This document shows, in pieces, positions 918 to 7,951 of a stretch of DNA of 7,951 nucleotides. The first letter of the stretch is position 1; every line of letters starts with the position of its first letter. The stretch comes from a virus (taxonomy: Duplodnaviria; Heunggongvirae; Uroviricota; Caudoviricetes). Under the pieces are notes generated by a model. The model saw only the letters and a list, made by a program, of their open reading frames with translations, was not told the DNA's origin and searched no databases. The stretch is from IMG/VR virus record IMGVR_UViG_2648501208_000002; one strand, 5' to 3'. The position numbers and the translations under genes were made by a program.

Positions 918-1427
918 TTAGTCTGCCAAGTCTTCCTCAGTCGCAACTGGGTAATTCCAAATATCAAAAAAAGCTATAGCCTCCTGCCATTTGCTCCATA
1001 AGTTATCAAGTACTTGTGTAGGTTCCGTACTTTTAAAAACAGAATCAGCCGCATCACCGTTATGAACTTCCTCGTACAGTTCCATTATTAGCAGATTAAC
1101 AAAGTACTGTTTCAACATTAATGCCTGATTACCTTCTTTCTGCTGGCTATCCTGCTTGATGAGCTCCATCGCCCGTACTAGGCACCTGATGATATCCGCT
1201 GCATCATTAACGCTCCATTCAGATCCGCGCTTATCTTTAGCTGATGAATTAGCTCTCTCAGCGCAAGCCTTTAAAGACTCATAAAGGTAAACTCTATTTT
1301 GTAGCTGCAGCGCTTTTTTTGACGTGCACCAACTTGCAAGCGCCGACCCCGCTGCGGCTAATGTGCCAAACGCAGAAATGCCTGCTGCTATTGCACTTAA
1401 GTCGGCACTGTCAAAGTTCCACATCAT
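918..1427 (-). CDS. Hypothetical protein (169 aa) with a hydrophobic N-terminal segment; function unknown
   Basis: ORF with AAGGTG 5 nt upstream of the ATG at 1427. Residues about 9-33 (LSAIAAGISAFGTLAAAGSALASWC) are hydrophobic and could be a membrane anchor or signal; the rest is predicted helical with an acidic C-terminus. AT-rich codon usage unlike the lambda backbone. No family recognised. Confidence 0.55.
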   Translation of the reverse strand: MMWNFDSADLSAIAAGISAFGTLAAAGSALASWCTSKKALQLQNRVYLYESLKACAERANSSAKDKRGSEWSVNDAADIIRCLVRAMELIKQDSQQKEGNQALMLKQYFVNLLIMELYEEVHNGDAADSVFKSTEPTQVLDNLWSKWQEAIAFFDIWNYPVATEEDLAD

Positions 1428-1661: not shown

Positions 1662-2270
1662 TTATTGCAACAGATTCTGACGGAAATATGGTAACACACG
1701 ACTCCACTTATCATCCTGCCACGGTTGGAATTTTACATGCGCCGTTTCTCTGGCAAGGATTTCTCGCGCCCTGTTGAGTATCCGAGGATATTCTTGTTCG
1801 ATTGAAGTGAATCTACCTGCTTCGCGATGCTCTGCGACCTGAAGAAGGGGCGTAACGTTCTGGCAGGCGGTTAACATCGTATCACTTGCTCGCCATAACC
1901 AGGCGAGTGTGCAAAGTTCGTTATCAGTGAATTGTTTTGTGATTGGGGATTGTTGAACTTCTCGATCGAGAATATCCAGAACCCAGCGGCGGAATTCTTT
2001 GGCCACAGGAGTACGAGCAAACATGGCGATCAAATGGGCTCCGCGAAGGCTAAATACTCGAGACTCCTGCATTCCACGAGGGGTGGTCACTTTGACCACC
2101 CTTGTCATCATATCTGTGAATTCATCTGAGTGCCGAGAGTAAATGCGCTGAACTGCTTTATCGTCCGCATATTCCAGTGCTAAACCAACTTCAGTGGCAG
2201 TAAGCCAAATTCTGTTATTGTGGCAAATCGGGGTAAACGTCGTTTTGTGGAATGCTAATTGAGTAGTCAT
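1662..2270 (-). CDS. BRO-N / phage antirepressor N-terminal-domain-like protein (202 aa)
   Basis: ORF with GAGGTGA 5 nt upstream of the ATG at 2270. The N-terminal region (RIWLTATEVGLALEY...SLRGAHLIAMFARTPVAKEFRRWVLDIL) fits the Bro-N/antirepressor pattern (..DVA..LGY... / ..AK.F..WV) from memory. The C-terminal half is unassigned. Confidence 0.55.
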   Translation of the reverse strand: MTTQLAFHKTTFTPICHNNRIWLTATEVGLALEYADDKAVQRIYSRHSDEFTDMMTRVVKVTTPRGMQESRVFSLRGAHLIAMFARTPVAKEFRRWVLDILDREVQQSPITKQFTDNELCTLAWLWRASDTMLTACQNVTPLLQVAEHREAGRFTSIEQEYPRILNRAREILARETAHVKFQPWQDDKWSRVLPYFRQNLLQ

Positions 2271-2683: not shown

Positions 2684-2774
2684 GAATGTAAAAAATCGTA
2701 GGTGCATTTCTGCATCTGTGAATGGAGATGAGAGTTTGGATTGTGTGTGCGCATAAACGTCCCCGTTTAGCGCA
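2684..2774. repeat. Copy 2 of the 91-bp imperfect direct repeat; the same terminal hairpin at 2748-2774
   Basis: See copy 1. Copy 2 lies between the 500-aa gene promoter region and the small-peptide/BRO-N module. Confidence 0.85.
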
Positions 2775-2822
2775 ACCCCACCACCGGGTGTTCAGGCCGA
2801 CAGTAACTATATTATTCCCTAC

Positions 2823-2838
2823 TGATTTTTGAAAATCA
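2823..2838. promoter_or_regulatory. Perfect 7-2-7 palindrome TGATTTT-TG-AAAATCA; candidate operator
   Basis: Seen directly in the sequence, about 245 bp upstream of the 500-aa gene start in an AT-rich intergenic region. No cognate regulator identified. Confidence 0.25.
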
Positions 2839-2893
2839 AAGGTCTTTATACGTCACACGAGAGCAAATATTTCCGAAGAAGAAACCTTTCGCC

Positions 2894-2991
2894 TTGAAAG
2901 GATAAAGAGTTCATTTCATAAATTGAAATATTCAATAAGAATATTGCAAAAAATGAAATTATTTACTAGCGAGTCTATCTAACTGATAATT
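2894..2991 (+). promoter_or_regulatory. Candidate sigma70 promoter region for the 500-aa gene
   Basis: Two by-eye candidates: TTGAAA (2894-2899)-N17-CATAAA (2917-2922), and TTACTA (2963-2968)-N17-ATAATT (2986-2991). A hairpin CCTTTC-N5-GAAAGG (2885-2901) overlaps the first -35. Low confidence; AT-rich DNA gives many chance matches. Confidence 0.2.
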
Positions 2992-3082
2992 ATGAAGATT
3001 GTAAGCGGTAGCAATCACCCGCATACACATTGAACAGGATTTAATACAAAACGTCTTAAATTGTCCGTAAGGAATAGCACGA

Positions 3083-4585
3083 ATGACTCAAACTCCTCTA
3101 TTACTTGCAATCATATTTTTATTGGTTGTTCTTGTTCTTTATATAGCTGCAATCAAACGCATCAAAAAAATACAATTAGAATTAAGTGATAGCAATCAAA
3201 AAAATGAAGAATACAAATCTCGCTTTGCAGATTATTTTAATGTAGAAGAAGAATGTAAGAAGCTTATTGAGAAAACAGAGCAAGAATGCTCCATAATAAA
3301 AGAAGAATCCCTAAAAGTAAAAGAAAATGCCAATAATGAACTAACAAACACCATTGAAAAAATGGATGGTATCAATAAACAAATCCAAGAGCTAAGAAGA
3401 ACTTATAAAGAGAAGAAAGAAATATATGATAAACTAGTAAGGCAAATTTCTATTTATTCAGAAGATGTTGAGCTAGCCGAACTAGGATTTTACGAACCTC
3501 ATTTTAATTTTGAAGATTCAGAGCAATTTAAAAACAAAATAAAATCCATCAGGGATGAACAGAAATTAATGCTGCGGGATAAAACCCACTCTGGCGCAGT
3601 ATATTGTACAACCCAATGGACTGTTGAAGGCTCTCGAGCAGAGGGTAAAAAAATGACAGACAGAAATATCAGGCTAACTACTAGAGCATTTAATAATGAA
3701 TGTGATGCTGCAATTAGCAATTGCACGTGGAAAAACATCACTAAAATGGAAGAACGCATCACAAAGGCATTTGAGGCCATAAATAAACTAAACGAGCAAA
3801 ATCACATATATATAAACACTAAATACCTCAATAAAAAACTTGAGGAATTGTGGCTTACCCATGAATATCGTGAGCAAAAACAGAAAGAAAAAGAAGAACA
3901 GGCAGAAATAAGGGCACAAATGAGAGAGGAGGAGCGTGCACAACGAGAAATAGAAAAGGCCATGCAAGACGCAGAGGCAGAAGAGCGCCGTTATAAAAAA
4001 GCAATTGAAGCTGCAAGAAAGGAAATGGAAAAAGTTACTGGTGACATGAAGCAGCGCCTCGAAAATCGCATTGCCGAACTAGAACAGAGTTTGTCGCAGG
4101 CTGAATCAAAGCATCAAAGAGCATTATCCATGGCACAACAAACCAAACAAGGTCATGTTTATATTATTTCGAACATAGGTTCTTTTGGGGAGAATGTTTA
4201 TAAAATAGGCATAACACGACGTCTTGATCCGCAAGACCGTGTAAATGAGCTCGGTGATGCATCTGTTCCTTTTATTTTTGATGTACATGCCATGATTTAT
4301 TCGGAGGACGCTCCATCATTAGAAAAAAAACTACATGATGTCTTCGATAAAAAGAGAGTCAATCTTGTAAATCGTAGAAAAGAGTTTTTCTATGTTACTC
4401 TGGATGAGATCAAAGAAGCTGTTAAAAAACACTCTGATTCAGAAATTGAATTTATTGAGACAGCAGTCGCAAAAGACTTTAATGAGTCATTGGCTATTCG
4501 TAATCATGAAAATAAAAAAAGTGACAACAGCAACTCATCAATTATACCTGAGCGAAAAACCCCAGAGTTTGCAGATGCAATTTAA
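3083..4585 (+). CDS. Membrane-anchored coiled-coil protein with C-terminal GIY-YIG-like (T5orf172/MUG113-type) domain, 500 aa; candidate anti-phage or exclusion protein
   Basis: Longest ORF in the window, on the strand opposite the phage early operon, with AAGGA 9 nt upstream of the ATG. N-terminal hydrophobic helix (LLLAIIFLLVVLVLYIAAI). Residues about 250-340 are K/E/R/Q-rich heptad-like coiled-coil. C-terminal GHVYIISNIGSFGENVYKIGITRRLDPQDRVNELGD...EKKLHDVF...RKEFFYV matches the T5orf172/GIY-YIG-like signature from memory. The middle region (GFYEPHFNFEDS...CTTQWTVEGS) resembles the DUF4041 region that often accompanies T5orf172. Very AT-rich codon usage, by eye roughly 30-35% G+C. Confidence 0.85.
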   Translation: MTQTPLLLAIIFLLVVLVLYIAAIKRIKKIQLELSDSNQKNEEYKSRFADYFNVEEECKKLIEKTEQECSIIKEESLKVKENANNELTNTIEKMDGINKQIQELRRTYKEKKEIYDKLVRQISIYSEDVELAELGFYEPHFNFEDSEQFKNKIKSIRDEQKLMLRDKTHSGAVYCTTQWTVEGSRAEGKKMTDRNIRLTTRAFNNECDAAISNCTWKNITKMEERITKAFEAINKLNEQNHIYINTKYLNKKLEELWLTHEYREQKQKEKEEQAEIRAQMREEERAQREIEKAMQDAEAEERRYKKAIEAARKEMEKVTGDMKQRLENRIAELEQSLSQAESKHQRALSMAQQTKQGHVYIISNIGSFGENVYKIGITRRLDPQDRVNELGDASVPFIFDVHAMIYSEDAPSLEKKLHDVFDKKRVNLVNRRKEFFYVTLDEIKEAVKKHSDSEIEFIETAVAKDFNESLAIRNHENKKSDNSNSSIIPERKTPEFADAI

Positions 4586-4610
4586 TTAATTTGTAGTAGC
4601 AATAAAGCAG

Positions 4611-4650
4611 GCATCGTTGAGAATATTTTGTCAGCGATGCTTACTTCTCT
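4611..4650 (+). terminator. Possible terminator or hairpin downstream of the 500-aa gene
   Basis: Inverted repeat GCATCG-N18-CGATGC followed by TTACTTCTCT. The loop is long and the T-tract is interrupted. Confidence 0.2.
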
Positions 4651-4833
4651 AACAAAAACGGTGATTACCAACGAACTAACGGACTTCAGGTAATCATAAG
4701 ACAAATGGAACGACTCTCCGGTGATTAGATCCCTGCAATAACAGTAATTTTCTACTAACTGAAAAATCTTTAACTGCCGCTCCTATTTCTAAGCTGACTG
4801 CTAGATTACATGGTGTGTTACCGATGAAAACCG

Positions 4834-5136
4834 TCACAGCAAGTTTAAGTTCATATCTCCATACACTGCCAACACTCGTTTCATCGCGGCACTCTGGCGA
4901 CACTCCTTGAAAATCAGATTCGTGCTCACCTTTCCTTCCCGTTCTTCCCTGGTAGCGAACCGGTAATACACCGTTCGCCAGACCTTACCATCAACGACCA
5001 AGATTCCTGCCCGTGCCATTTTAGCCGCAGCCTGATTTATACTGGTTACTGTTGCGCCTGTTACCGCAGCAACGTCCTGCGCACAGAAGCTCTTATGCGT
5101 CCCCAGGTAATGAATAATTGCCTCTTTGCCCGTCAT
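4834..5136 (-). CDS. ren: Ren protein (lambda-type), with a divergent C-terminal tail
   Basis: MTGKEAIIHYLGTH...ATREEREGK...KECRQSAAMKRVLAVYG matches lambda Ren as I recall it. The last 7 residues (DMNLNLL) differ from the lambda ending. The ATGA start/stop overlap with P is as in lambda. Confidence 0.85.
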   Translation of the reverse strand: MTGKEAIIHYLGTHKSFCAQDVAAVTGATVTSINQAAAKMARAGILVVDGKVWRTVYYRFATREEREGKVSTNLIFKECRQSAAMKRVLAVYGDMNLNLL

Positions 5137-5834
5137 ACAGTTGCTCCTTTCAGTCCGAACTTCGCTTTGATTTCTGCGATCTTCGCCAGAGCCTGTGCAC
5201 GATTTAGAGGTCTACCGCCCATGACAGGAAGTTGTTTTACTGGTTCAGGTATCGCCTCACCACGGTTAATTCGCGCGGTCATACAAGTCAGTTCATCGGC
5301 AGCCTTGCGCCGTAATTCCGCATCAGTAAGCGCATTGGCCCGCATGTTCTGATACAGGTTGGTAACCAGCCAGTAGTGCGCGTTTGATTTCCACGGATAA
5401 GACTCTGCATCTGGATACAGGCCACGTTTCCGGCAATACTCGTAAACCATATCAACCAGCTCGCTGGCGTTTGGCAGCCCGGCGGTAACGGATGCTTCTT
5501 CCCGGCACCAGGCAACAAACTGCCCGGGTGATGGCAGGAATGGTCGATTCTGCCGACGGGCTACGCGCATTCCTGCGTCAACCTGTTCCATCGTGGTGAT
5601 CCCGTTTTCCCGGAAAGCCAGAACCCACTGGCGGCGGATTTCGTTCAGTTCGTTCTGGTCCCGGTTAGCCAGGCTCGCCGGGAAAGTTGCCAGTAACTGG
5701 CTGAACACACCATTGATGATCTGCGCTACCTGTTGTACCTGCGGCTTTTCGTCGTACTGTTCCGGCATGTTGTTGGCGATCCGGCGCATCTGCTCACGGT
5801 CAAAGTTAACCATCTGTGCGGCGATGTTTTTCAT
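5133..5834 (-). CDS. P: Replication protein P (lambda-type, DnaB helicase loader)
   Basis: 233 aa, MKNIAAQMVNFDREQMRRIANNMPEQYDEKPQ...AKFGLKGATV, almost identical to lambda P from memory. Confidence 0.95.
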   Translation of the reverse strand: MKNIAAQMVNFDREQMRRIANNMPEQYDEKPQVQQVAQIINGVFSQLLATFPASLANRDQNELNEIRRQWVLAFRENGITTMEQVDAGMRVARRQNRPFLPSPGQFVAWCREEASVTAGLPNASELVDMVYEYCRKRGLYPDAESYPWKSNAHYWLVTNLYQNMRANALTDAELRRKAADELTCMTARINRGEAIPEPVKQLPVMGGRPLNRAQALAKIAEIKAKFGLKGATV

Positions 5835-6726
5835 AAATCCACCCCGTAAATCCAGTCAGTGTTAAAGCCTGTTGCTTGTTACGGTTGATTTCGAGTTGGG
5901 TCCACTTGTCGCGGAGTTTGGCCGGACTTAGCACGTTACCGGACCAGAAGTTGTCCTGGCATGCCCAGCGGAACAGCACGCACATGTCGCGGTGGTTACG
6001 GCCGTCACGTTCACGCATCAGGCGGATATCGTTAGCCCACCCTGCAAAATTCGGTTTTCTGGCTGATGGCGCGATGGTCTTCACCATGTCAAACATCCAC
6101 TCTGCGGCGGTCAGGTCTTCTGCTGTCCCCCACCTGCTGCCGCTCTGAATTGCAGCATCTGGTTTCTCCACAGGAAGATCGTTTTCTGGTTGGTCAGAGG
6201 ATTCGCCAGAATTCTCGGACGAAAAAGGTTTTATATTGTCTTTTGTTAGTTTGTCTTTTGTGTTTACCTGATTCGGGTAAGTGCCTTTACCTGATTTGGG
6301 TAAACTTTTCTTACCTGATTCAGGTAAATTTACCTCTTTCAGGTAAACTTTATTTTTCTTACCTGATTCGGGTAATGTTGACCATTCACTGACCACATTA
6401 TTAATGCCGATATTCCGCCCGCTCTGAATAAAAATCCCACGCTTTACCAGAACACTTTTTGCAGCAGAACACTTGTGCGGCAATATCCCGGTCAACTCGG
6501 AAAGTTGCTCGTTGCTCACCCAATCCAGTTTTTTATTAAAGCCATATGTTTTGCGCATGACAGCCAGGAAGACCAGAAGCTGGTGCTGTGTTAATCCGGC
6601 CAGCATCACAGCTTCCAGCAACTCATTTGCAATGCGCGTATAACCATCATCGAGATCTGCCACGCGCGGCTCCTTTTGTGCCGCATCCGGCACTGGAAAA
6701 TTGAATATCTCAGCAGTGTTTGCCAT
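5806..6726 (-). CDS. O: Replication initiator protein O (lambda-type C-terminal domain; N-terminal iteron-binding domain diverged)
   Basis: The central and C-terminal region (YSSENSGESSDQPENDL...TAEDLTAAEWMFDMVKTIAPSARKPNFAGWANDIRLMRERDGRNHRDMCVLFRWACQDNFWSGNVLSPAKLRDKWTQLEINRNKQQA) is lambda O. I place the start at the internal ATG at 6726 (MANTAEIFNF..., GGGAGG 4 nt upstream), which corresponds to the lambda O N-terminus; the ORF track extends 30 codons further, to 6816. The 3' end overlaps P by 29 nt in an unusual way (see findings). Confidence 0.9.
   Translation of the reverse strand: MANTAEIFNFPVPDAAQKEPRVADLDDGYTRIANELLEAVMLAGLTQHQLLVFLAVMRKTYGFNKKLDWVSNEQLSELTGILPHKCSAAKSVLVKRGIFIQSGRNIGINNVVSEWSTLPESGKKNKVYLKEVNLPESGKKSLPKSGKGTYPNQVNTKDKLTKDNIKPFSSENSGESSDQPENDLPVEKPDAAIQSGSRWGTAEDLTAAEWMFDMVKTIAPSARKPNFAGWANDIRLMRERDGRNHRDMCVLFRWACQDNFWSGNVLSPAKLRDKWTQLEINRNKQQALTLTGFTGWIYEKHRRTDG
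6265..6375. repeat. Replication origin iterons (five 16-bp repeats, consensus TACCTGATTCGGGTAA) inside O
   Basis: Repeats at 6265-6280, 6288-6303, 6312-6327, 6331-6346 (degenerate) and 6360-6375, each with palindromic ends (TACC...GGTA). An AT-rich tract at about 6225-6264 lies on the side expected from lambda ori organisation, given that O is transcribed on the minus strand. Confidence 0.8.
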
Positions 6727-6812
6727 AATTCCTCCCGCAATGAGTGTGTTACGATTTGCACCTGAAAGTCGGTTCTGTTCCCGCAGACCGACTTTCGCCA
6801 TTTCTGAACCTG

Positions 6813-7352
6813 TCATATTGCCCCCAGCATGGTGGTCACCATCGCCATTAATGGACCAGCCAGATCCGGGTCCACACGAAACATCGACACAATACCTTCA
6901 CTCATTTCCTTCAGTTTCTGGTGGCGTGGTGCGTTGAGAATGACAGCCTGTTTTGCCTCACTGAGTTCCTTTTCCATTTCAGCCAACCGAGTCATGAAGC
7001 TATCCTGCTCAACCAGGTAACCGCGATATTCCAGCGGTAGTACCGCCAGAATTGCCGGGGTCAGTTCACGCACGTTATTTCGGTATTTTTCAGAATCGAA
7101 TTTGTTATCGAGGAAGCGGAACAGCTTCTGGCGTGCACGGCTGACATCATCAGGGAAATCGATGGTGCCGTCGCCCTGCTCCCGATACTCATTCACAATG
7201 AGTGCGGCAACGACATCCTGATTATCTACAGCCGACCAGGCGCGGACGGCATCACGGATTTTTTCGTGGCCTGGAGCTTGTTTTGTTTGAGAACGATTTA
7301 TCACCGCAGTCGGAATAAATCCGCTAGTCTGTTGGTATGTAAGTGGTTGCAT
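6813..7352 (-). CDS. YdaT-like protein occupying the cII position (179 aa)
   Basis: ORF with AAGGAG 8 nt upstream of the ATG at 7352, immediately downstream of the cro-like gene. The segment RELTPAILAVLPLEYRGYL resembles the conserved PAILAILP.ELR motif of YdaT-family proteins from memory. Confidence 0.55.
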   Translation of the reverse strand: MQPLTYQQTSGFIPTAVINRSQTKQAPGHEKIRDAVRAWSAVDNQDVVAALIVNEYREQGDGTIDFPDDVSRARQKLFRFLDNKFDSEKYRNNVRELTPAILAVLPLEYRGYLVEQDSFMTRLAEMEKELSEAKQAVILNAPRHQKLKEMSEGIVSMFRVDPDLAGPLMAMVTTMLGAI

Positions 7353-7421: not shown

Positions 7422-7652
7422 TTAAGCTGCGTTCTTTTCGGTGTGTGGAAACAACTTCGGAAGATCCGGGCGAATCTGGTATGCCTTCACAACTCCACCA
7501 GTAGCCGTAACAATGCTGCCGACATGTTCAGGGGATACCTTTGCTTTGTTGTGAAGCCACTTATAGACGGCCTGCTGTGAAACTTCGCAGGCATCGCCTA
7601 GTTTCTTTTGTGAACCAACGATATTGATCGCTGTTTTGATTGCTGGGTTCAT
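7422..7652 (-). CDS. Cro-like HTH regulator of the YdaS family (76 aa)
   Basis: GGAGG 5 nt upstream of the ATG at 7652. Divergent from the repressor gene across an operator region. AINIVGSQKKLGDACEVSQQAVYKWL is an HTH segment, and ...ATGGVVKAYQIRPDL fits the YdaS-type C-terminus. Confidence 0.7.
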   Translation of the reverse strand: MNPAIKTAINIVGSQKKLGDACEVSQQAVYKWLHNKAKVSPEHVGSIVTATGGVVKAYQIRPDLPKLFPHTEKNAA

Positions 7653-7756: not shown

Positions 7757-7951
7757 ATGAAAACAACACTCTCAGAAAGACTTAAAGAAGCCAGATTAGC
7801 GCGAGGCCTTACACAAAAGGCGCTTGGGGATTTGGTCGGGGTTAGCCAAGCTGCTATTCAGAAAATCGAAACAGGGAAAGCTAACCAAACAACTAAAATC
7901 GTGGAGATCGCGAACGCTTTGGGTGTGCGCGCAGAATGGTTATCTTCTGGC
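7757..7951 (+). CDS. cI-type phage repressor, N-terminal HTH (XRE family), partial at the window edge
   Basis: ATG at 7757, translating to MKTTLSERLKEARLARGLTQKALGDLVGVSQAAIQKIETGKANQTTKIVEIANALGVRAEWLSSG..., a classic HTH_XRE repressor N-terminus similar in pattern to the 434/P22 repressors. Open to the end of the window; no obvious Shine-Dalgarno. Confidence 0.75.
   Translation, partial: MKTTLSERLKEARLARGLTQKALGDLVGVSQAAIQKIETGKANQTTKIVEIANALGVRAEWLSSG

Follow-up and report, generated by a model that had tools for sequence, protein, structure and literature searches.

PD-λ-1 was discovered in a functional selection from E. coli ECOR26 by Vassallo et al. 2022 (PMC9519451). The supplement of that paper lists it as protein RCP76574.1 on contig QOXL01000020, encoded by a gene at 49060..50562, that is, 1,503 nt, and gives HHpred boundaries at residues 197-252, 357-448 and 373-449. 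The protein was later renamed SNIPE, and its mechanism was worked out by Saxton et al., Nature 2026 (PMC13190303). In both studies, which used the native promoter, the defence against λ and other siphoviruses was observed directly (PMC9519451, PMC13190303). The published mechanism is that of the protein with methionine at position 377, here called the M377 protein.

PhoA and LacZα fusions place the N-terminus of SNIPE in the periplasm and the remainder of the protein in the cytoplasm, and the SNIPE-GFP signal is uniform along the membrane (PMC13190303). SNIPE that lacks the transmembrane (TM) helix is toxic; it binds to the nucleoid and introduces double-strand breaks, an effect abolished by E414A. 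The role of DUF4041 is to promote DNA binding (PMC13190303). The defence is direct and non-abortive, that is, the cells survive infection: in time-lapse microscopy and in growth curves at high multiplicity of infection SNIPE cells grow on, unlike those of the abortive-infection control PD-λ-3 (PMC13190303). Phage adsorption is unchanged (PMC13190303, PMC9519451). ParB-marked λ genomes never show up in SNIPE cells, injected 32P-labelled DNA is degraded in a manner dependent on E414, and neither an induced resident prophage nor transformed plasmids are attacked (PMC13190303). Hence self and non-self are set apart by location, since the nuclease cuts only DNA that comes in through the injection apparatus.

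SNIPE associates with the ManYZ mannose permease, the route of λ DNA entry, and ManZ labels the λ tape measure protein during injection (PMC13190303). The N-terminal region is highly variable in the SNIPE family and acts as a specificity adapter; in the published model it is this region that associates with ManYZ (PMC13190303). For most siphoviruses of the BASEL collection the protection is weak and independent of ManYZ (PMC13190303). In the case of Bas14, defence is strengthened by DUF4041 mutations, the tape measure protein is where escape mutations lie, and when a pBPA probe is placed at N250 of a defence-enhancing DUF4041 mutant, it crosslinks to this Bas14 protein (PMC13190303). Wild-type SNIPE is inferred to bind siphovirus tape measure proteins weakly.

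Zorya and Kiwa are discussed as the nearest functional analogues of SNIPE (PMC13190303). Like SNIPE, both are membrane-associated and act at the inner membrane during genome injection, but they are multi-gene systems made of unrelated proteins, whereas SNIPE is encoded by a single gene. The genes rexAB and sieB of λ and sieA of P22 are independently transcribed prophage morons that protect the lysogen from other phages. They share with SNIPE the genomic logic, an analogy that the earlier note had drawn for rexAB and sieB, without any sequence or domain relationship. Moreover, Rex is abortive, whereas SNIPE defends directly by degrading incoming DNA.

Identity and architecture of the window protein

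The window, that is, the whole stretch of 7,951 nucleotides analysed here, contains on its + strand a complete open reading frame (ORF) at 3083..4585, with an ATG start and 500 codons followed by a stop codon. Its length, 1,503 nt, equals that of the published PD-λ-1 gene. The protein matches the PADLOC model PDLC03976 (PD-Lambda-1) with E 1.5e-197, residues 1-485 corresponding to profile positions 1-485 of 491, and a second PD-Lambda-1 model, PDLC03977, is also matched over the full length (E 5.8e-194); the only PADLOC models matched are those of PD-Lambda-1 and PDC-S57. PHROG 1847 is a full-length match as well. The NCBIfam search of the window protein yielded only sub-threshold coiled-coil noise, with an SMC-related match at 18.6 bits against the cut-off of 300.

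Over its full length the window shares 99.9% identity with Escherichia phage PhiR26_1 (PV340555.1), and the PhiR26_1 coding sequence annotated as "PD-lambda-1" (XSB42081.1) shares 499 of 500 residues with the window protein. By its name, PhiR26_1 originates from ECOR26. A literature search on the name "PhiR26_1" gave no match; the ΦR phages come from the work of Brenes and Laub in 2025. The RefSeq protein WP_000195116.1 has been labelled "DUF4041 domain-containing protein" and, more recently, "SNIPE associated domain-containing protein", and the current Pfam name of PF13250 (DUF4041) is SNIPE. All nine published mutation sites (E223, N250, L253, W257, E264, K305, I308, T319 and E414) are in register here. 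The ECOR26 protein (RCP76574.1; XSB42081.1; WP_000195116.1) and the window protein agree in length, in domain limits and in their place in the ren-nin slot of one type of prophage; the differences include M377I in the window protein and a frameshift in the O gene of the window prophage.

Hence we assign the gene, with high confidence, to SNIPE/PD-λ-1, a moron that lies in the ren-nin hotspot of an E. coli prophage of the DLP12/λ type and whose one protein acts against phages directly, without abortive infection. The earlier note had proposed a prophage-borne anti-phage system, and its biological reading was correct wherever it could be checked. Its further suggestion that the system may be uncharacterised was wrong, as PADLOC models exist and Pfam and RefSeq use the name SNIPE. 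The system is already known, named and mechanistically characterised, and the finding is correct and not new, because SNIPE has been published and named in public annotation.

The N-terminal transmembrane anchor, supported by hydropathy and by a helix in the AlphaFold2 (AF2) model, comprises residues 6-24 (3098..3154, + strand). This segment is the top-scoring hydrophobic 19-mer of the protein, with a mean Kyte-Doolittle value of 3.37, and is followed by the basic stretch KRIKK. The N-terminal helical region extends over approximately residues 25-125 (3155..3457, + strand), where the AF2 helices span residues 5-47 and 54-125. DUF4041 occupies residues 198-252 (3674..3838, + strand; Pfam E 1.2e-19), scoring 70.4 bits against the cut-off of 27, and in this region E223, N250, L253 and W257 sit at the published positions. 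It is connected to the nuclease by a long helical linker, approximately residues 246-355 (3818..4147, + strand; AF2 helices 246-317 and 321-355), with E264, K305, I308 and T319 also at the published positions. The C-terminal nuclease domain of the GIY-YIG type (T5orf172/MUG113) covers residues 357-449 (4151..4429, + strand), Pfam T5orf172 matching at 357-449 (E 1.1e-16) and MUG113 at 373-449 (E 1.5e-18). These Pfam limits agree with the HHpred boundaries of PD-λ-1 (PMC9519451). In the AF2 model as a whole (pLDDT 78) long helices, 5-125 and 246-355, flank the compact DUF4041 domain. Thus hydropathy, structure prediction and Pfam agree on the arrangement described earlier from the letters alone, namely, a membrane anchor, long helices (a charged coiled-coil in the earlier note), DUF4041 and a C-terminal T5orf172/GIY-YIG module. 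The profile searches that had been suggested as a check place T5orf172 and DUF4041 above their cut-offs, in addition to the PADLOC PD-Lambda-1 match.

For the analysis of conservation we used two sets, 120 close homologues and 149 divergent representatives, for the latter of which the nuclease domain served as query in an exhaustive search. The family is large: the homologue search produced at least 8,000 candidates, and the nuclease-domain search 3,168 representatives at E ≤ 0.001. SNIPE homologues from Vibrio, Shewanella, Photobacterium and the Enterobacterales have the same three-part architecture, the same Pfam domains and an invariant nuclease core; among the matches listed, they are 48-62% identical to the window protein. 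The E. coli variant forms a tight cluster, the next relatives among the matches listed being those from Vibrio and Shewanella, about 56% identical.

The residues of the GIY-YIG motifs are present (V359-Y360-I361, Y373-K374-I375-G376, R379/R380, E414 and N427/N430), and, with the exception of positions 359, 361, 373 and 375, they vary little or not at all among the homologues. The codon of the catalytic E414 is at nt 4322-4324, and this glutamate is invariant among 269 homologues. The invariant polar residues Y360, K374, R379, R380, R386, E389, D400, H402, E414, N427, N430 and E434 are all intact, which answers the question, raised in the earlier note, of whether the catalytic residues have been retained.

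Structural comparison provided less. The sequence search of the PDB gave no significant match, the best one (E 0.065) falling on a charged helix, and the matches of the full-length structural model are limited to helical proteins. When the nuclease domain was modelled separately, the top structural matches were the SLX1 GIY-YIG nucleases. This goes in the direction of the expected resemblance of the C-terminal domain to GIY-YIG nucleases, but the matches are weak, with 11-13% identity. Compared with nucleases of the SLX1 and I-TevI type, SNIPE has in addition the membrane anchor and DUF4041. The main grounds for the nuclease assignment are the matches to Pfam, the conservation of the motifs and the published effect of E414A.

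Genomic setting and expression signals

All other complete genes of the window are on the - strand and form a lambdoid early-right operon. These are the genes for a YdaS/Cro-like protein (7422-7652), a YdaT/"cII"-like protein (6813-7352), O (5806-6816), P (5133-5834), Ren (4834-5136), a Bro-N/P22_AR_C antirepressor (Ant/Rha; 1662-2270), a phrog_1779 protein (918-1427), NinB/YbcN (268-723) and NinE (98-268). On the + strand there is otherwise only the gene of a cI-like repressor (7757-7951), which is cut off at the window end. Further, the ORF list of the window contains no same-strand partner ORF of at least 40 amino acids flanking the SNIPE gene. The GC content is 0.351 in the ORF and 0.357 in the insert at 2757-4833, as opposed to 0.469 in the left flank and 0.493 in the right one. 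The earlier description of a 500-residue, opposite-strand, single gene of foreign composition holds on each of these points, as it is the only complete + strand gene, has no such partner and differs from both flanks in GC content.

The AT-rich SNIPE cassette, located in the ren-ninB/ybcN hotspot, was delimited as 2775..4858 by breakpoints in comparison with PhiR34_1, PhiR5_1 and strain E8. Its left edge is a copy of a 104-nt repeat (2671-2774). On the right side homology to other lambdoid phages restarts at about 4859-4874, within ren (ORF 4834-5136). More exactly, the homology with PhiR34_1 stops on the left at about 906 and restarts on the right at about 4874, the respective positions for PhiR5_1 being about 2048 and 4859. 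Between these points the cargo of the two phages is emrE-ybcK-ybcL-ybcM or small genes for hypothetical proteins.

The region 2757-4833, counted as present when at least 80% of it was matched at an identity of 95% or more, was found in 131 of 5,426 complete E. coli genomes (about 2.4%), and all these copies are chromosomal. In the plasmid collection, one record has the cassette; among phage records, PhiR26_1 alone matched the window across it. Every sampled copy is situated between ren and ybcN/ninB in a DLP12-type lambdoid prophage, as would be expected from the earlier suggestion that homologues lie in variable hotspots: the ren-nin slot is a variable cargo hotspot. The sampled SNIPE carriers include decayed prophages that lack O and P, and in other genomes there are SNIPE copies interrupted by insertion sequences (IS) or annotated as truncated.

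PD-λ-1 defended from its native promoter on a fragment of 1,847 nt, with flanks of only 62 and 282 nt (PMC9519451). Since a cloned fragment with such short flanks defends, a working promoter should lie close to the gene. In this respect the earlier claim that the gene has its own promoter is supported; the motif scan, on the other hand, adds nothing above chance. It produced a candidate sigma-70 promoter, TTTACT-17-GATAAT, with 9 of 12 positions matching, 93 nt upstream of the ATG (2962..2990, + strand). The region contains 11 promoter-like sites, compared with 6.6 ± 2.3 expected from shuffled sequences, which is no clear enrichment, and the 2962-2990 site is not above chance. The site would lie on the published fragment, and count as a promoter candidate, only if the 282-nt flank precedes the gene.

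Downstream of the gene, repeat search and folding identify a stable hairpin, formed by an inverted repeat that begins 20 nt past the stop codon (4605..4646, + strand). It falls inside the 62 nt that follow the stop codon. The folding energy on the + strand is -24.6 kcal/mol (z -4.37), and none of 200 shuffled sequences was as stable; on the - strand it is -18.2 kcal/mol (z -2.27). The hairpin noticed at first reading is thus real. It is not followed by a U-tract, and the terminator scan called no + strand terminator downstream of the gene. We infer that the hairpin is possibly a transcript-end or insulating structure; in the latter case it may insulate the gene from convergent pR transcription.

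The M377I allele and the state of the prophage

The sole difference between the window protein and that of PhiR26_1 is M377I, an ATG to ATA change at nt 4213 (codon 4211-4213). Residue 377 directly follows K374-I375-G376 of the second GIY-YIG motif of the nuclease. The same G-to-A change alone sets the 2,077-nt cassette apart from the chromosome of strain E8, and each of the top complete E. coli genomes listed has a bit score of 3831, consistent with one mismatch in each. The exact I377 protein is on record only on contig LJCG01000079.1 (assembly GCA_001421045.1), which is the window itself. This allele is the only feature of the window that is absent from the literature.

In the remaining part of the alignment with PhiR26_1 there are a net 34-nt deletion at nt 5864-5865, a 1-nt intergenic deletion at 1603 and single-nucleotide differences at 637 and 1251. 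The 34-nt deletion, unless it is an assembly error, frameshifts the 3' end of O. As the O gene is frameshifted, the prophage element may be decaying.

Position 377 is occupied by Met in 119 and by Leu in one of the 120 close homologues; in the 149 divergent homologues the counts are 118 for Met, 28 for Leu and 3 for Val. Ile is found in none of the 269. Since the homologues allow Leu and Val here, Ile is probably tolerated, and, judging by the alignment, M377I is probably neutral.

The main competitor of this reading is that the SNIPE copy in the window is hypomorphic or dead, with M377I impairing folding or catalysis and the prophage itself already in decay. We consider this unlikely. It draws on the near-uniform Met of the close homologues and the complete lack of Ile, on the fact that nt 4213 is the lone cassette difference from E8, with one mismatch likewise in the listed top E. 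coli matches, on the frameshifted O of the same contig, and on the interrupted or truncated SNIPE copies seen elsewhere. However, the Leu and Val of the divergent homologues (28 and 3 of 149) demonstrate that an aliphatic residue, including a beta-branched one, is accepted at this position; the ORF is otherwise intact, with all invariant polar residues kept; and a one-base difference in a draft contig could be a sequencing error. A variant of the same idea, in our opinion just as doubtful, would give residue 377 a role in tuning nuclease activity or auto-inhibition, so that the window copy would be a hypomorph or an altered-activity variant kept in a decaying prophage.

Proposed working of the window copy

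Given that the two proteins are identical at 499 of 500 positions, the mechanism of the M377 protein would be expected to carry over to a functional SNIPE in the window. A single N-terminal helix would anchor the protein in the inner membrane, with DUF4041 and the GIY-YIG nuclease facing the cytoplasm, and this anchoring would keep the nuclease off the chromosome. The nuclease, acting through E414, would cut phage DNA during injection, being positioned by ManYZ and the tape measure protein. This is essentially the published mechanism (PMC13190303), and the earlier note came close to it when it spoke of a membrane-tethered sensor coupled to a possible effector that targets nucleic acids. The gene would be expressed constitutively from a promoter of its own in the preceding 300 nt or so, without dependence on the convergent pR operon, and the hairpin after the stop codon may end or insulate the SNIPE transcript. 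The M377I substitution would be tolerated.

The gene might also encode a free-standing GIY-YIG homing endonuclease, that is, a selfish gene cutting empty sites in related phages. The T5orf172/GIY-YIG domain, the foreign composition, the precise insertion between conserved lambdoid genes and the near-identical cassettes in 131 genomes could all be read in this way. However, the cutting of a co-resident phage genome cannot be reconciled with a membrane anchor by which the nuclease is kept away from intracellular DNA, and SNIPE spares the induced λ prophage and plasmids (PMC13190303). Besides, direct defence has been observed against λ and other siphoviruses (PMC9519451, PMC13190303), and the homologues are widespread in bacterial chromosomes and carry variable N-terminal membrane adapters. 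This reading is largely refuted by the N-terminal anchor and the published sparing of resident DNA, and we give it hardly any credence.

Equally slim are the chances of an abortive-infection toxin, a nuclease released or activated on infection that degrades host DNA and kills the cell: this is a common mode among single-gene nuclease defences, and SNIPE without the TM helix is highly toxic and causes chromosomal double-strand breaks, but for the M377 protein this reading is rejected, as SNIPE cells infected at high multiplicity stay alive and go on growing, unlike those with PD-λ-3, and it is the injected phage DNA that is degraded, ParB-marked genomes never showing up (PMC13190303).

As a direct, membrane-anchored defence, the window gene would protect the lysogen against superinfecting λ-like and other siphoviruses. 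The significance of SNIPE is that self is told from non-self by location and not by sequence or modification, which has already been published. To this the window makes a modest addition, namely, one conservative allele and a confirmation of where SNIPE occurs natively, in the ren-nin hotspot of lambdoid prophages of the DLP12 type.

The O gene and the replication origin

The window differs little from its close relative, Escherichia phage PhiR26_1: outside the SNIPE gene there are SNPs at positions 637 and 1251, an intergenic deletion of one nucleotide at 1603, and a larger change at the 3' end of the replication gene O (5806-6816, minus strand). In the latter, sequence comparison shows 'AA' at 5864-5865 in place of 36 nt of PhiR26_1, a net loss of 34 nt. 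The resulting frameshift replaces the last 22 residues of O and extends the open reading frame 25 nt into P, and O is not called as a gene in the contig annotation. A 151-nt query spanning this place corresponds to 185 nt in all eight best-matching complete E. coli genomes listed, and therefore these genomes retain the sequence missing from O in the window. The change could be a true defect of a decaying prophage or else an assembly error.

Inside the O gene, a partly palindromic repeat of about 22 nt, resembling TTACCTGATTCGGGTAA, occurs in five copies at 6259-6375. Where they lie and how they are built identify them as the ori iterons at which replication of a lambdoid phage starts.

SNIPE copies in other genomes

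Damaged or rearranged copies of SNIPE, the gene of the membrane-anchored anti-phage nuclease, are seen in some E. coli genomes (loci L006 and L007; matches H20, H21, H52 and H63). Some have IS3, IS5 or IS1 inserted within or beside the gene. The SNIPE annotation of P276M (L006), situated in a prophage remnant, is cut to 338 aa, and in M23917 (L007) SNIPE is followed by an HD-domain protein, where ren-P-O would stand.

The neighbours of the SNIPE cassette

The Rfam search of the window yielded two RNAs on the minus strand, the C4 antisense RNA (74.8 bits) and the Hfq-binding sRNA isrK (58.7 bits), at 2317-2402 and 2427-2499. Since the pair is located immediately 5' of a Bro-N/P22_AR_C antirepressor gene (ORF 1662-2270, minus strand), what adjoins the SNIPE cassette looks like an antirepressor module of the isrK/C4/ant type. 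Between this module and the SNIPE promoter region, the terminator scan found a terminator-like hairpin with a T-run (2885-2901, minus strand), which could stop leftward transcripts that have passed SNIPE in antisense.

The variable hotspot that holds the cassette also contains a phrog_1779 gene (918-1427, minus strand). Its product, of 169 aa, has an N-terminal hydrophobic stretch and no match in Pfam, NCBIfam or PADLOC. The antirepressor and phrog_1779 together form a module flanked on both sides by copies of a 104-nt direct repeat (738-841 and 2671-2774, 89% identical). As E. coli strain E8, whose chromosome carries the SNIPE cassette, has a single copy of this repeat and no such module, recombination at the repeat appears to be the route by which the module is gained or lost.
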